Source of the DNA: Thermoanaerobaculia bacterium
GTDB taxonomy: Bacteria > Acidobacteriota > Thermoanaerobaculia > Gp7-AA8
Direction of reading: 5' to 3'
Assembly: GCA_036264035.1 (NCBI GenBank)
Contig: DATART010000124.1
Span: forward strand, 1 to 35,795
Length of the DNA stretch: 35,795 nt
The position numbers and the translations under genes were made by a program. Within the stretch, counting starts at the first letter, position 1, and every line of letters begins with the position of its first letter. A model generated the notes under the pieces. It ran no database searches. It was given only the letters and a program-made list of their open reading frames with translations, and was not told where the DNA came from. Shown here in pieces: positions 11,817 to 30,986 of this stretch.

Positions 11817-12569
11817 TCAACTGATCGTGCCGCCGAGGTAGTTGATGCAGTTGAGGATGAACGAGAGATTGCTGCCGTGCGCAACTTCGCCCGGCGCGGG
11901 ATAGCCCGTTCCCGCATCGCCGCAGAGTCCCGACCGCGCCGCCATGATCACAGTGCCGTCGTTGCTGTAAGAGAACTCCACTGCGAACGCGTAATCCGCC
12001 GGGCTGTAGTTGCTGCCGCTCGTGTCGCTGACGTTTGGCGGAAACGAGTAAAGCACCGTTCCGTTCCCTGGCGCGACACCGCACGACAGGAGCGCATAGA
12101 CGTTAGGGAGCAGCCAGTCCCGCGGTGCCGGCTTAGGTACTTGCATCACCGCCAGCGCCAACGGCGTAAACGGAAGTTGTGCGACCTCGAACCCCGCGGG
12201 CACGATCGTAATCCCGAGCGCCCCCGCCAGTACAGCGTCGAAGCCGGTATAAAACGTGTGGTTGCTGATGAACAGCAACTGTCCTCCGTTGTTCACCCAG
12301 GCCGGGATTCCAGTCAGGTCAGTCTCCGAAAAATCGAAGCTCGTTTCGTTCGGAATCGCGGGCGTGTAACCGGGTTGCGTGGCCGGGTAATGGGTGAGGA
12401 TCACGAGGACGTCCACTCCGTCGAGTTGCTGCGAGATGGGCTGCGTGTAATCCGTGAATGAATACGTGGTGCCCTGAGCGTCCAGCGCGTTGAGGAGCGT
12501 GACGAGATGGTTGGATGTTTCATTCTGGACTTGCACCTGAGTTCCCATACTGTCGAACAGGATGTTCAT
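11817..12569 (-). CDS. hypothetical protein, possibly class-I glutamine-amidotransferase-like / ThuA-like fold
   Basis: ATG 12569 preceded by AGGAGG (12577-12582, minus strand). 250 aa, MNILFDSMGTQVQVQ.... The pattern DGVDVLVILTHY...LTGIPAWVNNGGQLLFISNH resembles ThuA/DUF4159-type domains. No signal peptide. Visibly lower G+C than its neighbours. The rest of ORF 11817..13727 is antisense shadow. Confidence 0.6.
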   Translation of the reverse strand: MNILFDSMGTQVQVQNETSNHLVTLLNALDAQGTTYSFTDYTQPISQQLDGVDVLVILTHYPATQPGYTPAIPNETSFDFSETDLTGIPAWVNNGGQLLFISNHTFYTGFDAVLAGALGITIVPAGFEVAQLPFTPLALAVMQVPKPAPRDWLLPNVYALLSCGVAPGNGTVLYSFPPNVSDTSGSNYSPADYAFAVEFSYSNDGTVIMAARSGLCGDAGTGYPAPGEVAHGSNLSFILNCINYLGGTIS

Positions 12570-12704: not shown

Positions 12705-13721
12705 ATGTCCAATACGACTTCGACGACGATCACTCCCGTTCCAATGATCTATGCCTCGTTTTTCGGCGTCTGTAATCCCGACGATTCCACACTCGAGTCC
12801 TACAATGCCTCCGCGACCGATCTCGCCGGCTCTGGATTCGCGACGGTGAATCTCTGGCAATTTCACGTCGACGCTGCCGGCAACCTGCTCTTCAACGCGG
12901 CCGCGCCAGGACCGGCTCTGATCTCCGGCGGTGCGCTGCAGAGCGGGTTCTCGTACGTTCCCGGAGTCTTTGCCGCGTTGACAGCATCGGCAAGCAAGGT
13001 GACGAAGGTCCGGGCCACCATCGGCGGCTGGGGACTCGATAACACCTTCAACAACATGGTGCAACTGATCAACCAATTCGGCACCGGGCCGGCCAATCCC
13101 CTCTATCAGAACTTTGTCGCCCTGAAGGCGTTGGGAGTCACCGGGATCGATCTCGATCTCGAGCCCTCCGGCGGAAAGGTCATCCACGACTACCCTTACT
13201 ACATCGGCCCACTCGCGCAACTGATCACCATGATCGCGGGGCTGGGGCTGGGCACGACATTCTGCCCGTACCAGAACGAGAATTTCTGGCTCGTTCTCCT
13301 TGCCGCCGTTTACACGCAGAACGGCGGCCAGCAGCCGGTCAAGTCGATGAACGTGCAGTGCTACTCCGGCGGAGCAGGCAACACGCAAACCGCCTGGATC
13401 GACGTCCTCAACCAGTTCCCGGATCTGCAGACCGGAATGGCCACAACGGCGTCGGAAGCGCTTGGCATCAGCGATCCGGCCTCCTTCGTCGTTCCCGGAC
13501 TGGGACTTATGCTCAGCGGCCAGCCGCAATGCCCGTCCGCGCTTCAGCAGGCGCTGACGGCCAAGGGCTTCGCGCAGAAGGGCATCACCGGCGCCTACCT
13601 GTTCAACTACGCGAACATCCAGAGCATTCAGCAGAGCGGGAGCTGCCCGAACGACAACACGACGGCCGACTACGCAAACGCCATCATCGCGGGCATTAAC
13701 GCGGTGAACGGTGCGAGCTGA
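12705..13721 (+). CDS. glycoside hydrolase family 18-like (chitinase / endo-beta-N-acetylglucosaminidase-like) protein without signal peptide
   Basis: KVRATIGGWG ... LGVTGIDLDLEPSG matches the GH18 SxGG and DGxDxDxE catalytic strand (D-L-D-L-E). Later QCYSGG and GAYLFNY. ATG 12705 is preferred over 12690 because GGAGG (12692-12696) sits 8 nt upstream. Confidence 0.65.
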   Translation: MSNTTSTTITPVPMIYASFFGVCNPDDSTLESYNASATDLAGSGFATVNLWQFHVDAAGNLLFNAAAPGPALISGGALQSGFSYVPGVFAALTASASKVTKVRATIGGWGLDNTFNNMVQLINQFGTGPANPLYQNFVALKALGVTGIDLDLEPSGGKVIHDYPYYIGPLAQLITMIAGLGLGTTFCPYQNENFWLVLLAAVYTQNGGQQPVKSMNVQCYSGGAGNTQTAWIDVLNQFPDLQTGMATTASEALGISDPASFVVPGLGLMLSGQPQCPSALQQALTAKGFAQKGITGAYLFNYANIQSIQQSGSCPNDNTTADYANAIIAGINAVNGAS

Positions 13722-13747
13722 CGGCAATCCCTATCTACGTACTGTCG

Positions 13748-14623
13748 GTGTATCCTTTAGGGCGGGTCCACCGACAATTGAATCCTTCCTCGCTGTTCGA
13801 GACGAACCTGGCGGTCATCGATGGCGTGATCGCCATGGTGTGCAGGCGCGCACGGCTGCACGGCGCGGACGCCGAAGATTTCGCCTCATCGGTCCGCATC
13901 GCGCTCATGGAGAACGACTACGCCATCCTGCGCCAGTACGCCGGACGCTCCTCGTTCGCCACCTATCTCGGCGTGGTGGTCCAACGCCTTCTCCTCGATC
14001 AGCGCTCGCGGGCGCTGGGCCGCTGGCGTCCATCGCGCGAGGCGGAACGATTCGGCGAGGCAGGTGTGCTATTGGAGACGCTGCTGCATCGCGACCTTCG
14101 CACCCTCGAAGAATCGCTTCCCATCATTCAACGCCTCGACGGCACGATCACGCGCGAGCGCGCGGCCGGGATGGCGGCGCGCTTTCCCCTCCGGATAACA
14201 AAACCTCGCGCGGTGGATCTCGATGAGGATGTGCCCGTTGCCGGCAGCTATGCGGCAGATGACCGCGTCGTAGACGCCGACCGCCGCAGGCTGAGCGCCG
14301 AGACCAGCCGCGTGGTGCGGAAGGCGCTGGCGGCATTGCCGGACGAAGACGCCATGATCCTTCGCTTCCGTTTCGCCTCGGAGATGAGCATCGCCGACAT
14401 CTCGCGCATGCTGCGGCTGCCGCAGCGCCCGCTCTACCGCCGGTTGGAATCGCTGATCGCACGCCTTCGTGCGGCCCTGGCCGCGGCTGGTCTCAACGCG
14501 GGCGATGTCATCGCGTTGGTCGGCGAAGCGCAGGAGATGGATTTCGGCCTCGCAGACGGGAAAACCGATCCCGCGCGGCAGTCGCTCATTACGGAGACCC
14601 GAGCGGCGGAGGAGGGCCGATGA
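13748..14623 (+). CDS. ECF-type sigma-70 family factor with extended sigma2-sigma4 linker
   Basis: Sigma2-like DAEDFASSVRIALMENDYAILRQYAGRSSFATYLGVVVQRLLLDQRSR. Sigma4-like LPDEDAMILRFRFASEMSIADISRMLRLPQRPLYRRLESLIARLR. GTG 13748 or TTG 13778 start. Stop overlaps the next ATG. Confidence 0.8.
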   Translation: MYPLGRVHRQLNPSSLFETNLAVIDGVIAMVCRRARLHGADAEDFASSVRIALMENDYAILRQYAGRSSFATYLGVVVQRLLLDQRSRALGRWRPSREAERFGEAGVLLETLLHRDLRTLEESLPIIQRLDGTITRERAAGMAARFPLRITKPRAVDLDEDVPVAGSYAADDRVVDADRRRLSAETSRVVRKALAALPDEDAMILRFRFASEMSIADISRMLRLPQRPLYRRLESLIARLRAALAAAGLNAGDVIALVGEAQEMDFGLADGKTDPARQSLITETRAAEEGR

Positions 14624-17600
14624 CCATCGAGAACCGAAGTGCCGCGTGTCTCGATGCAGAAGTCCTCGCTGCCTTTGCCGACGGAAAGTTGACGAGGAGC
14701 GAAATGCCGGCGGTGCTGGCGCACCTGCGCGACTGCCCGAACTGTATGAGCGCATTGGAAATCGCGAACGAGATTGCCGGCGCAAAGGAGGCGCATTCCT
14801 TTCGCTTGTGGTGGGCCGCGGCCGCGGCGGTAATCGCGATCGCGATCGTCGTCGCCATTCCGCTGCTGCGCCGCGACGAATCGCCGACCGCGAAGCTCAG
14901 CAGGTACGCGCCGGCTGATGCGCGAACGGTCGAGACGCGGCTCGCGGCATTTCCGTGGGCGCCATACCGCGGGCCGCTCCGCGCCGGCGACGCTGCAGAA
15001 GACGCCCGGCGCCTGCAACTGGCCGGTGTTGCCGGCGATGCCGTCGCGCGCGCGAACACCGATCCCGCCGCCGAAGCGCAGCGGACGGCCGGCGTCGCTC
15101 TTCTGCTGGTCGGCGAACCCGAGAACGCGCTGAAGCGATTGCGACTCGCTGCCGAGCGAGCCCCCAACGATGCCGCGACGTGGTCCGACCTCGCTGCGGC
15201 TCTCGACGCCGCGGCCGTGCGCCTGGAGCGGAAGTCGCTACATACCGAGGCGTTGGCGGCGGCCGATCACGCGCTCGCGGTGGATGCATCGCATCCGGCC
15301 GCGCTCTTCAATCGCGCGTTGATCCTCGAGCACCTCGGCCTCGGCGGCGAGGCGCGCAAGGCATGGGATCGCTATCTCGCCGTCGATCCGTCGTCCCACT
15401 GGGCCGATGAGGCACGGCAGCACCTCCGCCGCTTGCCGGTGTCGACGGGCGAGGCGCGCTTCCGCGCCGCGCAGACCGACCTCGCGACCGTGGCAACCAT
15501 GGTGCCTTCGTTTCCGCAACTGAGCCGCGCGTACGCGGAAGGCATCTACCTCGGGCGCTGGGGCGCATCGGGCGACGTCGCGAATCTCGATGCAGCTCGC
15601 GCCATCGGCGACGCGCTGGTCCGATCGTCGGGTGAATCGTTGCTGCGCGACAGCGTGCGGGTCATCGACGCGTCGGCGGGCGAACGGCGGAAGCAACTCG
15701 CCGCAGCGCATGCGCTCTACGACCGCGCGCGCGCCACACTCTGGCATCGCCAGTCGCAGTCCGCGGAGCGCGAGCTTCGCGACGCTGCGGCCGACTTCGA
15801 GCGCGTTGGCAGTCCCATGTCGCTCGTAGCGCGGTACTACGCGGCCTGCGCGCGGTTCGAGAACGACGACATCGCGGGTTCCCGCGCGGAGCTCGAGCGC
15901 CTGCTCGCCGAGAGCAACGCACATCCGGAGTTCGTCGCTTTGCAGGCGCAGATCCACTGGCAGTTGGCGACCGTGGCCTTTTCCGCGGCCGACTGGGTCT
16001 CGGCTCTGGAGCCATTGAGCGAGGCCGAGCAACGTTTCCGCCGTCTCGGCGAGCGCGCCAACCTCGCCTTCATCAAGGGCATGCAGTCGACCGCGCTGGG
16101 CTGTCTCGGCCGGCCGGATGAAGCGTGGGCGGCCCGCATCGAAGCCTTTCGCGGCCTTGACTGGGAGGGGTATGCCGATCGTCTGCCGGTCACGCTCGGC
16201 GGCGCTGCGCGCATGGAATTGCACGCCGGACGGCTCGACACCGCCCAGTCGTTTCTGCACCTCGAAGTTAATGCTCTGCGTAACCTCCAAGACCATGCGC
16301 AATTGACCAACGCGCTCGTCCGCGAGACCTTGCTGCAGATCGAGCGCGGCGATCGCGTTGCTGCGTCGGAAGCGGAGCGCCAGGCCATGATCGCCGCGAG
16401 GTCACTCTCCGGACCGGCGCGCGGCATCGCCTTCGCCGATACATCGCTCGCCGCCGGCGCGGTCGCGCTGCCGGACAATGCCAGAGCGGCGCGCGAAGCG
16501 CTGACGTCCGCTATCGATTTCTACCGCGCCTCGGGGCGAATGATCTTCCTCCCGCAGGCGCATCTGCTTCGCGCCCGGGCCTCGCTGCGCGTTGCCGACC
16601 GCGCCGCCGCTCTGCGCGATCTCGACGAAGGGCTGGAGGTCCTCGACCGTCATGGCCGCCGCCTTGCCGGCCCGCTCGTCGGGACGGACATTCTCGACGC
16701 CGGCGCGGCGCTCGGGCAGGAAGCGATCCGGCTGCGCCTTGACATGGGCGACGTCGCGGGCGCGTTTCGCGAAGGCGAACGGCGCAATCTCCGTGTTGAT
16801 GGATCTGCGGATTCCCCTGTCCTTCTCGACGTCCTGCAGCACCGCCTGGCCGGTTCGTCCTCGGCCGTGATGATGCTGATGGTGGTCCCCGGCGAGGCCA
16901 TGGCGATCACCGTCACTGCAACGACGATCGCCACAGCTCGCGCGCCGCTCGACGAGCAGGCGCTCGATGCGCGGATTCGTGGCGCCGTTGAAGGTAAAAA
17001 CGACGATGCGGCCGGGCTGTACGACGCTCTCGTCCGCCCGTCGGAACCGGTCCTCGCGGGCATCGAACGGCTGATCGTCGTAGCCGATCCTCGATTGCGC
17101 AACGTTCCATATGCGGCACTTTACGATCGGATGAAAAAGCGTTACCTCATCGAAGCGGTCGCGGTTGCCGTCGCGCAGAGCGCCTCATCGCTGCGCGAGC
17201 AGCACGCGGCAGCCCCGCGGCTGGCCGTCGCTGTGGCGTTGCCGTCGGGTACGTTGGCGCCGCTGCCCGGCGCACGGCGGGAGCTCGACGATTTGACGTC
17301 GCTGTATCCGAAGCTCGTCGTCATCGAGCCCGCGTTCGCGACGCTGCCGGCGTTCGCGGCCGCCGCCGCGCACGCCGGAGTGGTCCACATTGCCGGACAC
17401 ACGTCGCACGTACCCGGCATGAGCGAGCCGGCGCTTCCTTTCGCACAGCACAGCGCGACGTGGAGAGATCTGTGCGGCCTTCGATTCGAAGCCGCCTCGG
17501 TGGTAATCCTCTCCGCCTGCGAGACGCTCAGCCGCACCTCCACGGGCAGTCTCGGAAGCGGCGTGCTCGCCGCGGGAGCGGGAGACGTGATCGGCACGCT

Positions 17601-17781
17601 GGCGCCGATCGCCGACGACGACGCGGCCGGCCTCTTCCAGCAGATCCATCGCGGCCTCGCCGCCGGAATGCCGGCATCGGACGCGCTCCGGCGCGCGCAA
17701 CTCGACGCTCTCGCCATGGAGTCAGCGACCGACCGTCACACAACGTGGCGCGCCGTGGCCTTGCTAACGCGACACATTTGA
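14620..17781 (+). CDS. membrane anti-sigma factor (zf-HC2) fused to TPR repeats and a CHAT (caspase-like) protease domain
   Basis: AHLRDCPNC (HxxxCxxC), TM span FRLWWAAAAAVIAIAIVVAIPLL, long TPR-like helical region, C-terminal CHAT motifs VVHIAGHTSH and VVILSACETL. ATGA overlap with the sigma gene and GGAGGAGGG just upstream. Confidence 0.8.
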   Translation: MTIENRSAACLDAEVLAAFADGKLTRSEMPAVLAHLRDCPNCMSALEIANEIAGAKEAHSFRLWWAAAAAVIAIAIVVAIPLLRRDESPTAKLSRYAPADARTVETRLAAFPWAPYRGPLRAGDAAEDARRLQLAGVAGDAVARANTDPAAEAQRTAGVALLLVGEPENALKRLRLAAERAPNDAATWSDLAAALDAAAVRLERKSLHTEALAAADHALAVDASHPAALFNRALILEHLGLGGEARKAWDRYLAVDPSSHWADEARQHLRRLPVSTGEARFRAAQTDLATVATMVPSFPQLSRAYAEGIYLGRWGASGDVANLDAARAIGDALVRSSGESLLRDSVRVIDASAGERRKQLAAAHALYDRARATLWHRQSQSAERELRDAAADFERVGSPMSLVARYYAACARFENDDIAGSRAELERLLAESNAHPEFVALQAQIHWQLATVAFSAADWVSALEPLSEAEQRFRRLGERANLAFIKGMQSTALGCLGRPDEAWAARIEAFRGLDWEGYADRLPVTLGGAARMELHAGRLDTAQSFLHLEVNALRNLQDHAQLTNALVRETLLQIERGDRVAASEAERQAMIAARSLSGPARGIAFADTSLAAGAVALPDNARAAREALTSAIDFYRASGRMIFLPQAHLLRARASLRVADRAAALRDLDEGLEVLDRHGRRLAGPLVGTDILDAGAALGQEAIRLRLDMGDVAGAFREGERRNLRVDGSADSPVLLDVLQHRLAGSSSAVMMLMVVPGEAMAITVTATTIATARAPLDEQALDARIRGAVEGKNDDAAGLYDALVRPSEPVLAGIERLIVVADPRLRNVPYAALYDRMKKRYLIEAVAVAVAQSASSLREQHAAAPRLAVAVALPSGTLAPLPGARRELDDLTSLYPKLVVIEPAFATLPAFAAAAAHAGVVHIAGHTSHVPGMSEPALPFAQHSATWRDLCGLRFEAASVVILSACETLSRTSTGSLGSGVLAAGAGDVIGTLAPIADDDAAGLFQQIHRGLAAGMPASDALRRAQLDALAMESATDRHTTWRAVALLTRHI

Positions 17782-17793
17782 AAGGAGAACATT

Positions 17794-18600
17794 ATGGGCA
17801 CCGTGAACATCAATTTTCTCGGCGTTTGCACGATTTTCAGGAATCTGGAGGTCACGCCCGGCGAGGTCATCAATCGCGTGGTGCTCGCGCGAACAACCGA
17901 GGCGTTCCAAAGACTAACAGGCGTCGTTGAGCACATTGCCAAGCTGCAGTTCGGGGCTGACGAGATCATCATCGATCAAGGACCGGGGTTGCCGCCGTTC
18001 CGGTCGCCGTTCCAGCCGCCTGCCGCAGGGTCATACGAACTCGACCAAGGAGTGCGATTGACGATCCCCAATGCAAAAAGGAGTACCGAGCTATTGCCGG
18101 AGCGCGGGTTGGATTGTCTTCCCAGCCTGGCGGTATTTCTCGATGGGACCATCGGACCTCCGGCCTCCTGGGTGTTCAATCCAGATATTGAGAACGTCCA
18201 GGCGTGGTTCGATTTCAATGGAGGTGAGGCGCTGGCCTACAAGCTGAATCCCGAGCCCCCATGCGACATTGTGCCCAGCATTACGGTCCTGACCATCGAA
18301 ACCCAAGACGATCCCCAGCTCGAATACAAGCCGCTGGGAGGCCTCCCGACCCTGATTACGCTGAAGAGCGCGTTGGAGCCGCCCAGCATATACGTCATGA
18401 ACTTCGCAGAAGGGCAGGGAGTGATCGAAGACAACAAGGATTTTCTGCTCAATTATTGCCTCGTCGATCCGTTTCCGGACATCTCGAAAATCTCCATTCC
18501 GAGAGCCAATGCTTGCCTGCTCCCGTCGCCAGGAACACCAGTCCATTTCCCCCGCTGCGGCGACGCGGGCCCGGGGTGCTCGAACACGACGTATCCGTGA
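17794..18600 (+). CDS. hypothetical protein (orphan, no recognisable motifs, no signal peptide)
   Basis: AAAGGAGAA Shine-Dalgarno 5 nt before the ATG. Starts 12 nt after the CHAT gene stop. 268 aa of protein-like composition. Lower G+C than the two upstream genes. Confidence 0.65.
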   Translation: MGTVNINFLGVCTIFRNLEVTPGEVINRVVLARTTEAFQRLTGVVEHIAKLQFGADEIIIDQGPGLPPFRSPFQPPAAGSYELDQGVRLTIPNAKRSTELLPERGLDCLPSLAVFLDGTIGPPASWVFNPDIENVQAWFDFNGGEALAYKLNPEPPCDIVPSITVLTIETQDDPQLEYKPLGGLPTLITLKSALEPPSIYVMNFAEGQGVIEDNKDFLLNYCLVDPFPDISKISIPRANACLLPSPGTPVHFPRCGDAGPGCSNTTYP

Positions 18601-19049: not shown

Positions 19050-19976
19050 ATGCGACGACTTGCCCTCGTACCCGCCCTGATCGCCCTCGCCCTTCCCCTC
19101 GCTGCCATCTCCGATTACCACGGACACAGCAATTACTCGAATCACGGACTCTCGGTCTCGATTGATGACTGGGAAGACGTTCGCGACTGCAGCGCGCTGC
19201 ATGTCAGCTACAACGACCGCACCGTGCCGGTAATCGAAGAGAACGTGCCGGTGAGCGGCATGCGCTCGCTCAAAGTGCGCAGCGATCGAAACGGCTCGAT
19301 CCGCGTCGTCGGCACGACGTCTTCGACCTTCGGCGTCAAAGCCTGCAAGGCTTCCGCGCTCGGCAATGCGAATGACATCCGCGTCAACGTCAGCGGCAAT
19401 GAAGTCAGCGCTGACCCGATCGACAACGAGTCGCGATCGATCGTCTACTTTCTGGTTTCCGCACCGCGCAATGCCACGCTTAATCTCGATGCCACGAATG
19501 GCCCGATCTCCATCGACGGCGTCGATGGCTCCGTCACCGCCAACGCGCTCAACGGCCCCATCTCCGTGAAGGACTCGAACGGTACACTCGACATTCACAC
19601 GCAGAATGGCCCGATCGCGTTTGCGGGCAACTCCGGCAACGTGAAGCTGCGAGCGACGAACGGTCCCATCTCCGTAAAACTGGCCGGCTCCTCCTGGACC
19701 TCCGGCAGCCTCGATGCCTCGACGGAAAACGGCCCGCTGTCGCTCAAGGTCCCGGCGAGCTACGGTTCCGGCGTGCACGTCGAGACGGACGGCAATTCGC
19801 CGGTGAGCTGCCGCGGCGCCGCCTGCCGTGCGGCGAGGAAGGCATATGACGAAAGCGGCGAAAACGATGAAGACTACGGTCCGCGCTGGCCACGCCGCAT
19901 CGACCTCGGCTCCGGCGCGCGCATGGTGACGCTGACCACGCACAACGGTCCTGTGTCGGTGAAAGAAGGCGACTGA
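19050..19976 (+). CDS. secreted DUF4097-like (putative adhesin / beta-helix) protein
   Basis: Signal peptide MRRLALVPALIALALPLAA. Five NGP(I/L)S repeats about every 18-20 aa (ATNGPISIDG, LNGPISVKD, TQNGPIAFAG, ATNGPISVKL, TENGPLSLKV). SD GGAGGA upstream. Confidence 0.7.
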   Translation: MRRLALVPALIALALPLAAISDYHGHSNYSNHGLSVSIDDWEDVRDCSALHVSYNDRTVPVIEENVPVSGMRSLKVRSDRNGSIRVVGTTSSTFGVKACKASALGNANDIRVNVSGNEVSADPIDNESRSIVYFLVSAPRNATLNLDATNGPISIDGVDGSVTANALNGPISVKDSNGTLDIHTQNGPIAFAGNSGNVKLRATNGPISVKLAGSSWTSGSLDASTENGPLSLKVPASYGSGVHVETDGNSPVSCRGAACRAARKAYDESGENDEDYGPRWPRRIDLGSGARMVTLTTHNGPVSVKEGD

Positions 19977-27790: not shown

Positions 27791-29857
27791 ATGCGATTCA
27801 TCTCCGCGGTTTTCTGCGCAGTGCTCAGTGTGTCCGCATTCGCCGATAACACTTCCACGCAAGCGGGGGCCGCACAGGGATCGAGCGTGACCATTCCGCT
27901 GACCCGCTACGACGAGCTGCAGAAAGCGACGGAGAACGCCGCGGCGACAGTGATTGACACGCTATCGCTGGCCGGCACTTTCCACGATCACAACCTCACG
28001 ATGACGTTCGCCGGACGCAGCGTCGGCGCGCGCGCCGCCACGACCGTCATCAGCGGCGCTCCCGATCTCACGCTCTCCGGCTGCAGCGGCGACGCGCTTC
28101 TCGTGCGCAGCAGTAAGGGCGTTTACGACCTCATCGCGCTCGCGCCTTCGTTCACGCTTCGCTGCGATGCGCGTCCGAGCGGCAGCGACCGCGTTCGCAT
28201 GGACGTCGCGCAATCGGTGCTGGCCGTGCGCTCCAACGTCGCCGATGGTGAGCTCGTCCCGGGCGACGATAGCGCGGACAACCTGCGAGGCTACTCGCTG
28301 GTGCGTCAGGTCGCGGGCGGCAACGAGACGCTCGCGGCGACGGCCACCGGCCGCTATCTCATCACGCTCCTGCCGGACACCACGCGTTTCCGCTACGTGA
28401 TCCAGATCCACAATCCGAATCGCAACACCTCGCCGCTGCTCATCCATCTCGTGTCCGGCGAACACCTGCAGCAGATCGACTCCGCGGCGCCGTACGAGCC
28501 GAAGGACGGCAGCTACGCGTTCGCGATGCCGCCCGGCGACTCCACGATCACCATGACCGGCGAGTTGCAGGGAACCAACTTCGCGCCGCCAGTCGAGGCC
28601 AGCCTGCAGTACGTCGTCGTCGAATCGCATCCGTTGTTGCGTCCGGCCATGAAGTCGGCGGCCAAACGCCTGAGCACCGGGGAGACCGGCATCACGACGC
28701 AGTATCGCGGCGCGCTCGCGTTCGAAATCGGGCCGCGCGAACGCATCTCGTGGACGGTGACCCGCCTCGAAGCACTGCGTGCCATCAGCTACGCGGTACG
28801 CAACGTCACCCACACTCTGTTCGTGCCGGCGAACGGTCCTGTCCTCGGCGAGTCGGACCTCTATCTCGACAATCAGGGCGCGCCCGAGGTCGTCCTCCCG
28901 CCGAAACCGGAGCCGACGTTCGTCAGCCTGGAGGGCGAGCCGGTATTGATGACGAAGAATGCCGGCGGCGAACTTACCGTCCCACTTTCCGCCGGCGTGC
29001 AACACGTGATCGTGCAGCATCGCCAGGGCATCGCGCACCTCCCCATCGTCTTCGCGCAACTGCAGGTGCCAAGGCTTCCGGTGCCGTCGACGTATACGAA
29101 CGTGACCATCCGCTATCCCGATCACTGGATTCCGCTCTGGCAGTCGTTCGCCAGCCGAGGAACTACGTGGCGGCCGGACGCAGAGGCGATGATGGTTTTT
29201 GTTCTGCTGATGCTTTGGATCGAACGCGCGCTTGCATTCGTCAAGCTCGGCGTTCGCGTACGGTTGATTGCGGCGATATTTTTCGCGTTTGCGGCGATGG
29301 CCATTCCGATGGTGTTGTGGATCGTCGTTCTCGGATGCAGCGCGGTGACGTTGTTATGGATCGCGACCCAGCGCCGCGCGATTTCGCTTCCTCGGATCAT
29401 CGGAGTCGCCCTGGCGGCTGGCCTGCTGGTCGTCCTCGCATTCGTCTATTCGATGTCGCAACGCGCCGCATCCGATTACACGAACAGCGCGAAAATGGAG
29501 TCCGGGTCCGGGGGCATTGCCGCCGTCACCGATACGGCCACGACAAGCGCGCAGTCGGTGCCGCCGCCATCACCGAAGGCCGCGCCGGCGCGCAGTGCAT
29601 TCGCCTATCAAGGCCTCCCCGCGAAGTTCGAGCTTCCTGATGGCGTGCGATCGCAATCGTTCAGCGAGCAGTTACTCTCGCCGGAGCGGCCGCAGACGAT
29701 CACGCTCGTTCTGCTTTCGATGACGATCGTGACGTGGACTGCAGTCGCGCTGGCACTCATTGCCGCGTGGATGTTGTTGCGTGAACGGGGAACGATCAAG
29801 GAGTCGGTGCGAGGTCGGCTGGCCGAGGCCGCACCGGTCGCGCCGGCGGTCGTATAG
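27791..29857 (+). CDS. large envelope protein of unknown function (signal peptide, ~450-aa extracytoplasmic part, C-terminal multi-TM region)
   Basis: GGGAGG SD. MRFISAVFCAVLSVSAFA signal. Hydrophobic spans between MMVFVLLMLWIERALAF and GVALAAGLLVVLAFVY, plus a last span ITLVLLSMTIVTWTAVALALIAAWMLL. Confidence 0.65.
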   Translation: MRFISAVFCAVLSVSAFADNTSTQAGAAQGSSVTIPLTRYDELQKATENAAATVIDTLSLAGTFHDHNLTMTFAGRSVGARAATTVISGAPDLTLSGCSGDALLVRSSKGVYDLIALAPSFTLRCDARPSGSDRVRMDVAQSVLAVRSNVADGELVPGDDSADNLRGYSLVRQVAGGNETLAATATGRYLITLLPDTTRFRYVIQIHNPNRNTSPLLIHLVSGEHLQQIDSAAPYEPKDGSYAFAMPPGDSTITMTGELQGTNFAPPVEASLQYVVVESHPLLRPAMKSAAKRLSTGETGITTQYRGALAFEIGPRERISWTVTRLEALRAISYAVRNVTHTLFVPANGPVLGESDLYLDNQGAPEVVLPPKPEPTFVSLEGEPVLMTKNAGGELTVPLSAGVQHVIVQHRQGIAHLPIVFAQLQVPRLPVPSTYTNVTIRYPDHWIPLWQSFASRGTTWRPDAEAMMVFVLLMLWIERALAFVKLGVRVRLIAAIFFAFAAMAIPMVLWIVVLGCSAVTLLWIATQRRAISLPRIIGVALAAGLLVVLAFVYSMSQRAASDYTNSAKMESGSGGIAAVTDTATTSAQSVPPPSPKAAPARSAFAYQGLPAKFELPDGVRSQSFSEQLLSPERPQTITLVLLSMTIVTWTAVALALIAAWMLLRERGTIKESVRGRLAEAAPVAPAVV

Positions 29858-29860
29858 CTA

Positions 29861-30730
29861 TTACTTGTCGATTAATCCCGCGTTCGTGGCCCGGTCGAAG
29901 ACCCACTTCGATCCGTCCTTCACCATGCGCACGAGGAAGAGCGCCTTCTGGTTTTCGAAGAGATCTCCTTCGACGTTGAGGATCGCGCTGTCGCCGCGCA
30001 CCTCGCCGCCGGTGATCTTGCCGGGCTTCTTCGGAAGATGGAAGCCGAGGGTTTGGATGGCGTCGGCGAGGTTCTCGTTTTCACTGCGGTCGGATTCGTA
30101 GAACGACTCCAGCGTTTTCGCGGTCACGTTTCCCTTGATGCCGGCCCAACTCTTTTTCGCGATCGCCGTCTGCAGCGCGTTGAACGCCTTGCCCGGTTCG
30201 CCGCCATCGGCCGGCAGCTTCGTTCCCGCGGGCGGATGCGTGACCTCGGTCGAAAACTTCAGGTCGATCGCGTAGTCATCGCCATCCATCGTCTTCAGCG
30301 GCTTCGGCGAGAAGATGCGGCCGGCCACCTTGTCGCGCGTGTTGGTGATCATGTCTGCGGTCATGCGGCTGCCGGTCATCTCGACGTACTGCGTCATCGT
30401 GTCGGAGTAGGTGGCGTTCATGCTCACGTCGTTATCGGGACGCACCCAAAGCAGCACGTAGTTGTGATCGCGCAATGCTTTCTGGTTGATGACGTTCGTA
30501 TGCGGATCGAGCTCCGCCGCCGCTTCGGCGACGTCGATCGGCTCCTCGGAAAGCACGACTTCGATCGCGGACTTGCGCGCGTCGCGCTGATCGTGCGTCT
30601 CGTACGCCGCCGCGTATTTCGGCTTGATCGGAGGCCGCTTGCCAGCGGTGAATTGTCCCGAGGCTTCGCCGCCGAGGGCGATGACAGGGCAAAGAAGGAT
30701 GAGAAGCGCGGCGATTCGTTTGTGCGGCAT
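29861..30730 (-). CDS. secreted hypothetical protein
   Basis: Start ATG 30730 gives MPHKRIAALLILLCPVIALGGEA (signal peptide). 289 aa, balanced composition. The upstream 31 codons of the listed ORF were discarded. Confidence 0.6.
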   Translation of the reverse strand: MPHKRIAALLILLCPVIALGGEASGQFTAGKRPPIKPKYAAAYETHDQRDARKSAIEVVLSEEPIDVAEAAAELDPHTNVINQKALRDHNYVLLWVRPDNDVSMNATYSDTMTQYVEMTGSRMTADMITNTRDKVAGRIFSPKPLKTMDGDDYAIDLKFSTEVTHPPAGTKLPADGGEPGKAFNALQTAIAKKSWAGIKGNVTAKTLESFYESDRSENENLADAIQTLGFHLPKKPGKITGGEVRGDSAILNVEGDLFENQKALFLVRMVKDGSKWVFDRATNAGLIDK

Positions 30731-30782
30731 CGCGATACCGTAGGTCGCCGCTCCGCCCGCGGTCAAGTCATACTCTCCTCGC

Positions 30783-30986
30783 ATGAGCCTCTTCCTCGGC
30801 CTGCTCTTCGGATCGATCGGCATGGTCTACATGATCTACGGCAAGCGGCAGTCGAGCGTGCTCCACATCGTGGTCGGCGCGATCCTGATCATCTATCCCT
30901 ATCTTTTTTCGAACGCGTTGCTGGTCTTCATCGCCGGCGTGATCCTCACCGCGATTCCGTATGCACGTCTTCGAGGACTGATCTGA
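30783..30986 (+). CDS. small membrane protein (67 aa, 2-3 TM)
   Basis: MSLFLGLLFGSIGMVYMIYGKRQSSVLHIVVGAILIIYPYLFSNALLVFIAGVILTAIPY. The stop overlaps the next ATG (TGATG). No obvious SD. Confidence 0.5.
   Translation: MSLFLGLLFGSIGMVYMIYGKRQSSVLHIVVGAILIIYPYLFSNALLVFIAGVILTAIPYARLRGLI

Follow-up and report, generated by a model that had tools for sequence, protein, structure and literature searches.

A DdvA-like anti-sigma factor with TPR and CHAT domains in a probable three-gene sigma factor operon of Thermoanaerobaculia

DdvA of Myxococcus xanthus is a single-pass anti-sigma factor in which a cytoplasmic zinc-binding anti-sigma domain (ZASD) is followed by a tetratricopeptide repeat (TPR)-CHAT region of ∼900 residues, and it is translationally coupled to DdvS, a sigma factor of the extracytoplasmic function (ECF) type (Nucleic Acids Research, 2018; PMC6061681). 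Its structures were obtained in 2024 by cryo-electron microscopy (cryo-EM) as well as by nuclear magnetic resonance (Science Advances; PDB 8ROT, 8RW5 and 8RLZ). By cryo-EM, TPR-CHAT is periplasmic and forms a dimeric, arrow-shaped assembly in which each active site faces the linker of the partner. A steric block by TPR-CHAT and the dependence on RseP once it is removed were both shown experimentally, and autoproteolysis by CHAT in trans as the site-1 cut, followed by RseP, was put forward by the authors as a hypothesis only (PMC11506125). The published survey listed DdvA-like proteins from Myxococcota and one Comamonas only, with just a subset of the pairs adjoining defence systems (PMC11506125). 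No later paper extending this distribution was found in a literature search, and the main text of the ECF classification of Casas-Pastor 2021 makes no mention of CHAT. Here we describe a gene of the same design in a 35,795-nt stretch of DNA (the window), which is the entire 35.8-kb contig DATART010000124.1 of a Thermoanaerobaculia (Acidobacteriota) metagenome-assembled genome (MAG, GCA_036264035.1). The gene lies between a sigma factor gene and a third gene, called X below. A first-pass annotation of the window, made from the sequence alone, had presented the fusion as if it might be new; the zinc anti-sigma-transmembrane-TPR-CHAT architecture is already known from DdvA, being catalogued in 2018 (PMC6061681) and structurally solved in 2024 (PMC11506125).

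The anti-sigma gene occupies 14620..17781 on the forward strand and encodes 1053 residues. Its parts, as deduced from the profile, modelling and alignment results given below, are as follows.

14620..17781 (+), DdvA-like transmembrane anti-sigma factor, 1053 aa: ZASD, transmembrane helix, linker, scaffold/TPR region and CHAT domain
14647..14787 (+), predicted cytoplasmic zinc-binding anti-sigma domain, aa 10–56, three helices, CHCC ligands C10/H35/C39/C42
14800..14871 (+), single transmembrane helix, aa ∼61–84 (Kyte-Doolittle, conservation, DdvA alignment)
14923..14982 (+), invariant juxtamembrane linker motif, aa 102–121, R-x-x-E-x-R-x-x-x-F-x-W-x-x-Y-x-G-P-x-R
14992..16824 (+), predicted extracytoplasmic scaffold and TPR superhelix, aa 125–735 (AlphaFold2 model, Foldseek against DdvA)
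16825..17778 (+), CHAT caspase-like domain, aa 736–1053, with putative catalytic H927 (17398–17400) and C967 (17518–17520)

The reading frame, peptides and codon positions quoted in the first-pass annotation proved correct by translation and residue numbering (codon starts: H35 = 14722, C39 = 14734, C42 = 14743, H923 = 17386, H927 = 17398, C967 = 17518). The two terminal domains it had named were recovered by profile searches, both above the Pfam cutoffs: zf-HC2 over residues 16–42 (23.4 bits, gathering cutoff 22.2) and CHAT over residues 797–1044 (E = 6.3e-36, 124.7 bits, cutoff 24). The single membrane span also held. Kyte-Doolittle analysis gave one strong hydrophobic span at residues ∼60–84 (19-residue window above 2), with nothing comparable outside the CHAT core, and a hydrophobic span was kept at this position in 73/73 of the full-length family members over which residue conservation was counted throughout, unless stated otherwise. 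As for the TPR-like region, all TPR Pfam models stayed below cutoff on this protein (the best was TPR_9, 27.1 vs 35), but an AlphaFold2 model (mean predicted local distance difference test score, pLDDT, 86.7; predicted template modelling score, pTM, 0.78) folded residues 125–727 into a continuous helix-turn-helix superhelix, in which ∼35 helices follow one another with pLDDT mostly >90 and after which comes an alpha/beta domain. In the same model the three helices of the ZASD lay at residues 13–20, 26–38 and 40–55. This model and the family profile were each built from 35 family members. At the codon positions, the guanine-plus-cytosine (GC) content of the gene was in line with what other window genes show.

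By family profile and predicted structure, DdvA and the window protein are distantly homologous. The family profile matched DdvA in the PDB (8rot/8rw5) at E = 7.1e-28 in two collinear stretches, namely profile 15–394 on DdvA 8–390, covering the ZASD, transmembrane helix, linker and first TPRs, and profile 918–1068 on DdvA 834–985, covering the catalytic part of CHAT. BLASTP against DdvA 8–390 gave 29% identity over 285 residues (E = 2e-9). Foldseek with the AlphaFold2 model also returned DdvA at the top (E = 3e-20, TM-score 0.59/0.69, ∼1000 aligned columns, 20% identity), and separases and craspases ranked after it with TM-scores of 0.2–0.4. A single-sequence phmmer search of the PDB retrieved neither DdvA nor any CHAT structure. 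Besides the collinear domain order (CHCC zinc domain, single transmembrane helix, long linker, scaffold/TPR, CHAT), the alignment paired the dyad H927/C967 with H862/C907 and the transmembrane helix with W71–L92 of DdvA; the zinc ligands C10/H35/C39/C42 matched the DdvA zinc centre C6/H28/C32/C35, and the linker motif R-x-x-E-x-R...Y-R-x-P and a TPR motif, [FW]NR[AS]L...W-x-x-EAR, were common to both.

Two residue assignments were also refined. The dyad motifs had been described as intact with either of two histidines; H923, H927 and C967 were indeed kept in 73/73 members, but the catalytic histidine is H927 of the GHT motif, which aligns with DdvA H862, and H923 is a further invariant residue that is specific to the family. 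The zinc motif H35/C39/C42 was kept in 72/73 members, but a fourth ligand had been missed: it is C10 (codon 14647), a position held by Cys in 45 of the 73 members and by His in 27, giving a CHCC/HHCC centre.

Residues 8–390 of DdvA, reconstructed from the PDB alignment, served as a further query; with it, the protein search gave one relative only (P0150, locus L086, 39% identical), and the metagenome scan gave one 3.1-kb contig (L087), which ends inside ddvA and supplied an orthologue of DdvS. The L087 protein was 93% identical to DdvA, and upstream lay an ORF (open reading frame) of 642 aa (8–1936, +) at the position of the CBASS (cyclic-oligonucleotide-based antiphage signalling system) CHAT-SAVED effector upstream of ddvS in M. 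xanthus, a correspondence drawn from its position and the published locus description.

The best-conserved parts of the family include a short stretch just outside the membrane helix. Residues 101–120 ranked among the best-conserved 20-residue stretches of the whole protein: R102, R107, G118 and R121 were found in 73/73 members and E105 in 71/73, and F111, W113 and Y116 were nearly invariant. Unexpectedly, the motif is as invariant as the catalytic dyad, and it is common to the window family and DdvA, where it aligns with R109-T-L-E-A-R...Y-R-R-P-P127, directly before V129–P140. In DdvA, V129–P140 faces the dyad of the other protomer and has been proposed as the self-cleavage site (PMC11506125). 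The juxtamembrane motif might accordingly be a latch or a determinant of site-1 cleavage, and its invariance together with that of the dyad offers new circumstantial support, though not proof, for a catalytic role involving the linker. The most variable stretches included residues 41–60, where the third ZASD helix runs out into its tail, the transmembrane segment and parts of CHAT. The DdvA authors suggest that the ZASD-tail region sets sigma/anti-sigma specificity among paralogues (PMC11506125), and the variable tail of the window family fits this suggestion.

We infer that TPR-CHAT is extracytoplasmic and the ZASD cytoplasmic, because of the homology to DdvA, the single transmembrane helix and the need for the ZASD to reside in the cytoplasm to bind sigma. 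This topology had been assigned in the first-pass annotation and agrees with that of DdvA (PMC11506125). Over the family, Lys and Arg around the helix averaged 2.96 on the N-side vs 2.12 on the C-side, a weak bias that favours an inside N-terminus.

The gene upstream of the anti-sigma gene, the junction between the two and a conserved upstream element are as follows.

13778..14623 (+), sigma-70-family (ECF-like) sigma factor, 281 aa, TTG start (TIGR02937, conservation, public gene call)
14608..14623 (+), translational coupling: Shine-Dalgarno-like GGAGGAGGG at 14608–14616 and ATGA start/stop overlap at 14620–14623
13747..13757 (+), conserved GGTGTATCCTT element, 21–31 nt 5′ of the sigma start, candidate −10-like promoter element

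The ATGA overlap behind GGAGGAGGG, which had been noticed in the first reading of the window, was present, and the 4-nt start/stop overlap recurred in 66/76 related loci. The sigma start had been placed at GTG 13748; TTG 13778 is more likely, being where the public gene call and the ATG of homologues fall. The assignment as an ECF sigma factor held in that the protein passed TIGR02937 (56.7 bits vs cutoff 42.9), but with its 281 aa it departs from the minimal sigma2-sigma4 architecture (∼180–200 aa, short linker) and is not a minimal ECF. With Pfam, Sigma70_r4_2 was detected in 11/16 and Sigma70_r2 in 5/16 of the sigma homologues, all weakly, and Sigma70_r3 matched none of the homologues searched. 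The layout comprised sigma2 (aa ∼20–80), a conserved insert of ∼85 aa (aa ∼81–170) with the motif GRW-x-PS-x-EA-x-R-x-G ... LP-x-R-x-x-RPR, and sigma4 (aa ∼175–245), which in the window family contains an invariant QRPLYRR and is followed by a conserved C-terminal tail of ∼35 aa (aa 246–281, LDFGL). The insert was unmatched in the 182-aa canonical ECF sigma factor of L086, the locus closer to DdvA.

Upstream of the sigma gene, the GGTGTATCCTT element was conserved in four orthologous or paralogous loci, and it did not recur above chance in the window. GTATC was found in 20/77 loci, in most of these 19–34 nt before the sigma start codon, and Gibbs sampling revealed a T-rich element, TTTTCCA, 20–80 nt upstream of the start codon in about half of the loci (for example L012, L024, L030, L044, L056 and L060). 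In some loci CGTATC followed TTTTCCA after 16–17 nt, which might represent an ECF-type −35/−10 pair, with inconsistent spacing. The sigma gene of the window lacked TTTTCCA and was preceded only by GGTGTATCC (13747–13755). A sigma-70-type promoter was looked for at the window cassette and none was found; no dyad was shared upstream of the sigma genes by more than 15/75 loci.

More than 340 full-length relatives of the anti-sigma factor, with 43–72% identity and the same length and domain order, were present in the protein collection, and 193 cassette loci were found in a scan of one genome per species. The best 80 of these 193 loci (L006–L085), on which the neighbourhood counts are based, came from Thermoanaerobaculia or Acidobacteriota MAGs, except for one partial match. 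The cassette is often multiplied within a genome: there were at least six copies on the 5.08-Mb contig CAVWUH010000002.1 (L009, L013, L022, L026, L058 and L082), at least five in two other MAGs, and two full cassettes ∼8 kb apart in L002 (1–2531 and 9135–14088). That single genomes hold so many divergent paralogues suggests a set of insulated sensors, each with its own input. The pairing of sigma genes with these fusions, which had been noticed in the window only, could be counted: a sigma homologue lay immediately upstream in 77/80 loci, and the other three were partial or lacked upstream DNA. When all flanking ORFs of the 80 loci were clustered, only three genes were recurrent, namely sigma, the TPR-CHAT anti-sigma and X, and no protease gene recurred as a neighbour of the cassette. 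In L080 (2203–4467; contig labelled Gemmatimonadales), a relative that kept the transmembrane helix, linker motif and TPRs began with a short unrelated N-terminus where the zinc anti-sigma domain would be, a sigma gene was missing upstream, and the contig ends inside the gene; this could be a sigma-independent variant or an oddity of binning or assembly.

The third gene follows the anti-sigma gene closely.

17794–18600 (+) (region 17782..18600), third cassette gene X, 268 aa, all-beta, with an orphan predicted fold

Its ATG lies 12 nt after the anti-sigma stop codon and is preceded at 6 nt by AAGGAG. A same-strand ORF of 190–310 aa was found directly 3′ of the CHAT gene in ∼70/73 loci. Common to the ORFs are an N-terminal F-x-G-[IV]-C-T-H-F...H-R-V-V-L, several conserved cysteines and the extreme C-terminal motif CS[ND][ST]x[YF]P-COOH, and homologues of X clustered by BLAST in at least 64 loci. 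The AlphaFold2 model of X was all-beta and confident (pLDDT 92.6, pTM 0.91). No match to this fold was found in the PDB and BFVD (best TM-score ∼0.1), and no family was found in Pfam, NCBIfam, PADLOC and PHROGs. An exhaustive profile search over 1.84 billion representatives gave only 333 relatives, all of them stand-alone. The GC content of X was 0.58 vs 0.69 for the CHAT gene. One apparent CHAT-X fusion (P0151, 835 aa) was rejected as a frameshift or pseudogene artefact, since the C-terminal half of CHAT ran into an out-of-frame Arg/Pro-rich stretch and then into an intact X. In M. xanthus, the uncharacterized co-regulated gene MXAN_7287 lies right after ddvA (PMC6061681) and is a positional counterpart of X; the third gene of L086 was not X-like.

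Taken together, these results suggest with a probability of roughly 0.7 that sigma, anti-sigma and X form a three-gene operon built around a DdvA-homologous anti-sigma factor that works in a DdvA-like manner. If the findings on DdvA can be transferred, the zinc domain would sequester the co-encoded sigma factor at the inner face of the membrane, and the ∼970-residue periplasmic TPR-CHAT region would sense a signal and sterically block the site-2 protease RseP. A signal-induced conformational change would align the dyad, and one protomer's CHAT domain would cut the juxtamembrane linker of its partner. RseP and cytoplasmic proteases would then free the sigma factor, which would up-regulate its own operon including X, plus a regulon. 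The release step is the more tentative part, and for cleavage of the linker by CHAT in trans, as proposed for DdvA, we would put the chances slightly short of even. That sensor, protease and sigma inhibitor would be one polypeptide, as suggested by the first-pass annotation, matches the published model of DdvA, but the cleavage itself is a proposal both here and in DdvA.

Several observations weigh against this interpretation. In unstimulated cells, the H862A and C907A variants of DdvA were without phenotype, and self-cleavage of DdvA was not seen on phage infection (PMC11506125). DdvS is a minimal ECF sigma factor of 182 aa with a 29-residue linker, and the window sigma factor is ∼100 aa longer; compared with the DdvS orthologue of L087, it showed only generic similarity in sigma4 (hhalign probability 7%). 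The 37-residue ‘midrib’ helix of DdvA was not reproduced in the AlphaFold2 model of the window protein. Around the transmembrane helix of the window protein itself, there were one Lys/Arg on the N-side and four on the C-side, so that the positive-inside rule was not decisive. X was without a signal peptide, and a contact between X and a periplasmic TPR-CHAT region is not obvious. Finally, a shared promoter or regulon could not be defined from the regions upstream of the sigma genes.

It is conceivable, though we regard it as rather unlikely, that the protein is a DdvA-type anti-sigma factor whose CHAT domain cuts some other periplasmic substrate or is a non-catalytic sensor or steric plug, and that a separate protease makes the site-1 cut. 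Classical ECF anti-sigma factors rely on such separate site-1 proteases. The dyad of DdvA was found in a resting geometry, in an active site described as incomplete and lacking the three-helix motif (PMC11506125), and, together with the silent dyad mutants and the lack of self-cleavage on phage infection, this speaks for such an alternative. However, the dyad was invariant in all 73 paralogues despite an overall divergence of 40–70%, which argues that catalysis has been retained; the linker was conserved to the same degree, and in DdvA it faces the active site of the other protomer; and the only genes recurring beside the anti-sigma gene were sigma and X, neither being a protease gene.

A more far-reaching view would take the cassette as a self-contained, diversifying envelope-surveillance module, in which the linker would be the site of CHAT self-cleavage or a latch and X a dedicated partner, acting as effector output, inhibitor or ligand of TPR-CHAT. 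We consider this combination unlikely as a whole; if true, it would be a three-component variant not described for DdvA.

The first-pass annotation had also drawn an analogy to the craspase protease Csx29 and its substrate Csx30. This analogy stood at the level of the fold, but it is a distant one (Foldseek TM-score 0.26–0.43; profile E ∼0.6). A craspase-like system without CRISPR, in which a cytoplasmic TPR-CHAT would act on X as Csx29 does on Csx30, with the C-terminal tail of X as the TPR ligand, is in our view very improbable. TPR arrays classically bind C-terminal peptides, and the strictly conserved extreme C-terminal motif of X, its lack of a signal peptide, its standing as the only recurrent partner besides sigma and the C-side excess of Lys/Arg in the window protein would all suit such a mechanism. 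Nevertheless, a single transmembrane helix and a ZASD that must be cytoplasmic for sigma binding leave TPR-CHAT on the other side of the membrane, which is where cryo-EM located it in DdvA; the family-mean charge bias favours the same orientation, the likeness to Csx29 is confined to the fold, and cas genes are absent from the window. An artefact of chance or annotation behind this set of domains, be it a fused gene call, a pseudogene or spurious motifs, is next to impossible: the sub-cutoff TPR models, a zf-HC2 score only 1.2 bits above cutoff and the artefactual P0151 are outweighed by the >340 full-length homologues of the same length and order, the 193 loci, the invariant functional residues, the confident AlphaFold2 model, the highly significant homology to DdvA and the ordinary codon-position GC of the gene.

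The DdvA-like operon of the window stands among ordinary genes. No cas, CRISPR, CBASS or PADLOC defence genes were found within the 35.8 kb, in agreement with the CRISPR-independence claimed earlier, and the window ties the module to neither CRISPR nor CBASS. Reading the window as a defence island was rejected after annotation of both flanks, which revealed ordinary genes: a TonB-dependent receptor, MFS transporter, TetR regulator, acyl-CoA ligase, KAS III, SDRs, an M57 peptidase, a PAS/GAF protein, a PMT-family glycosyltransferase, a GSDH-like protein, GNAT, SLT, a DEAD-box helicase, a methyltransferase and a Wzy-like protein. The regions flanking the cassette (12–13 kb and 18–19 kb) had the lowest GC content of the window, 0.58–0.59 vs a mean of 0.64. 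Just upstream of the sigma gene, 12744–13721 (+) encodes a 325-aa protein without a signal peptide and with a weak GH18-like match (E ∼0.01). Its homologues (58–81% identity) were found near orthologous cassettes in L004 (19783–20754 and 14022–15530) and L023 (2006–2980, −), and the next gene after X in L004 is a bona fide GH18+CBM5/12 gene. Such GH18-type neighbours may hint at the regulon of the orthologous group to which the window belongs. Divergent from the 325-aa gene, 11817–12569 (−) encodes a 250-aa protein for which no Pfam, PADLOC or PHROGs family was found. Downstream, 19050–19976 (+) encodes a secreted protein with a MRRLALVPALIALALPLAAIS signal-like N-terminus and repeated NGPIS/NGPIA units, which suggest a beta-helix or adhesin-like fold; DUF5114 matched below threshold only, and the protein was not conserved beside the cassette in other loci. 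Two further ORFs, 27791–29857 (+, 688 aa) and 29861–30823 (−, 320 aa), had a coding-like GC content at third codon positions (GC3) and no Pfam or PHROG family.

What the present locus adds to DdvA is modest: the abundance of the family in Thermoanaerobaculia, the long sigma factor, the nearly constant third gene X and the invariant linker motif. The fusion of sensor, protease and sigma inhibitor was already established through DdvA, and no new category is opened. The value is comparative, in that hundreds of divergent copies from a second phylum show where constraint is absolute: at the dyad, at the zinc ligands and at the juxtamembrane motif shared with DdvA. This motif provides a concrete, mutable candidate for the unproven self-cleavage step. 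The data also indicate that TPR-CHAT anti-sigma switches are tied neither to CRISPR/CBASS islands nor to Myxococcota, can pair with an atypically long sigma factor and travel with a third gene of orphan fold.

Compared with known systems, the window locus is closest to DdvA-DdvS, with which it shares, in addition to the domain and residue correspondences above, a translationally coupled sigma gene immediately upstream and an uncharacterized gene next in the operon. It differs from it in several respects. Identity is only ∼20–29%, the family belongs to Acidobacteriota (class Thermoanaerobaculia), paralogy reaches at least six copies on one contig vs three in M. xanthus, the window CHAT domain is ∼30 residues longer, and the M. 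xanthus locus controls an adjacent CBASS/CRISPR island, whereas no such island lies near the window cassette. The RseA/DegS/RseP and RsiW/PrsW/RasP systems likewise employ a single-pass anti-sigma factor with a cytoplasmic (Z)ASD, in which loss of the extracytoplasmic domain licenses site-2 cleavage; there, the site-1 protease is a separate protein, whereas in the window the candidate is the CHAT domain of the same chain. Self-cleaving anti-sigma factors of Firmicutes, cited by the DdvA authors, use no CHAT module (PMC11506125). Eukaryotic separase, the second-best structural group, similarly places a caspase-like domain after a helical-repeat superhelix, but it resides in the cytoplasm or nucleus as a monomer, is far larger, is controlled by securin and phosphorylation, and has an unrelated function. 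The type III-E craspase protease Csx29 belongs to the same fold class, TPR-CHAT, also carries a His/Cys dyad and has a functional tie to proteolytic sigma control; it is soluble and cytoplasmic, is encoded together with Cas7-11/gRAMP, Csx30, Csx31 and RpoE, is switched on by Cas7-11 with target RNA and has another protein, Csx30, as its substrate, whereas in the window, which holds no cas genes, the protease is fused to the anti-sigma factor itself, behind a transmembrane helix.

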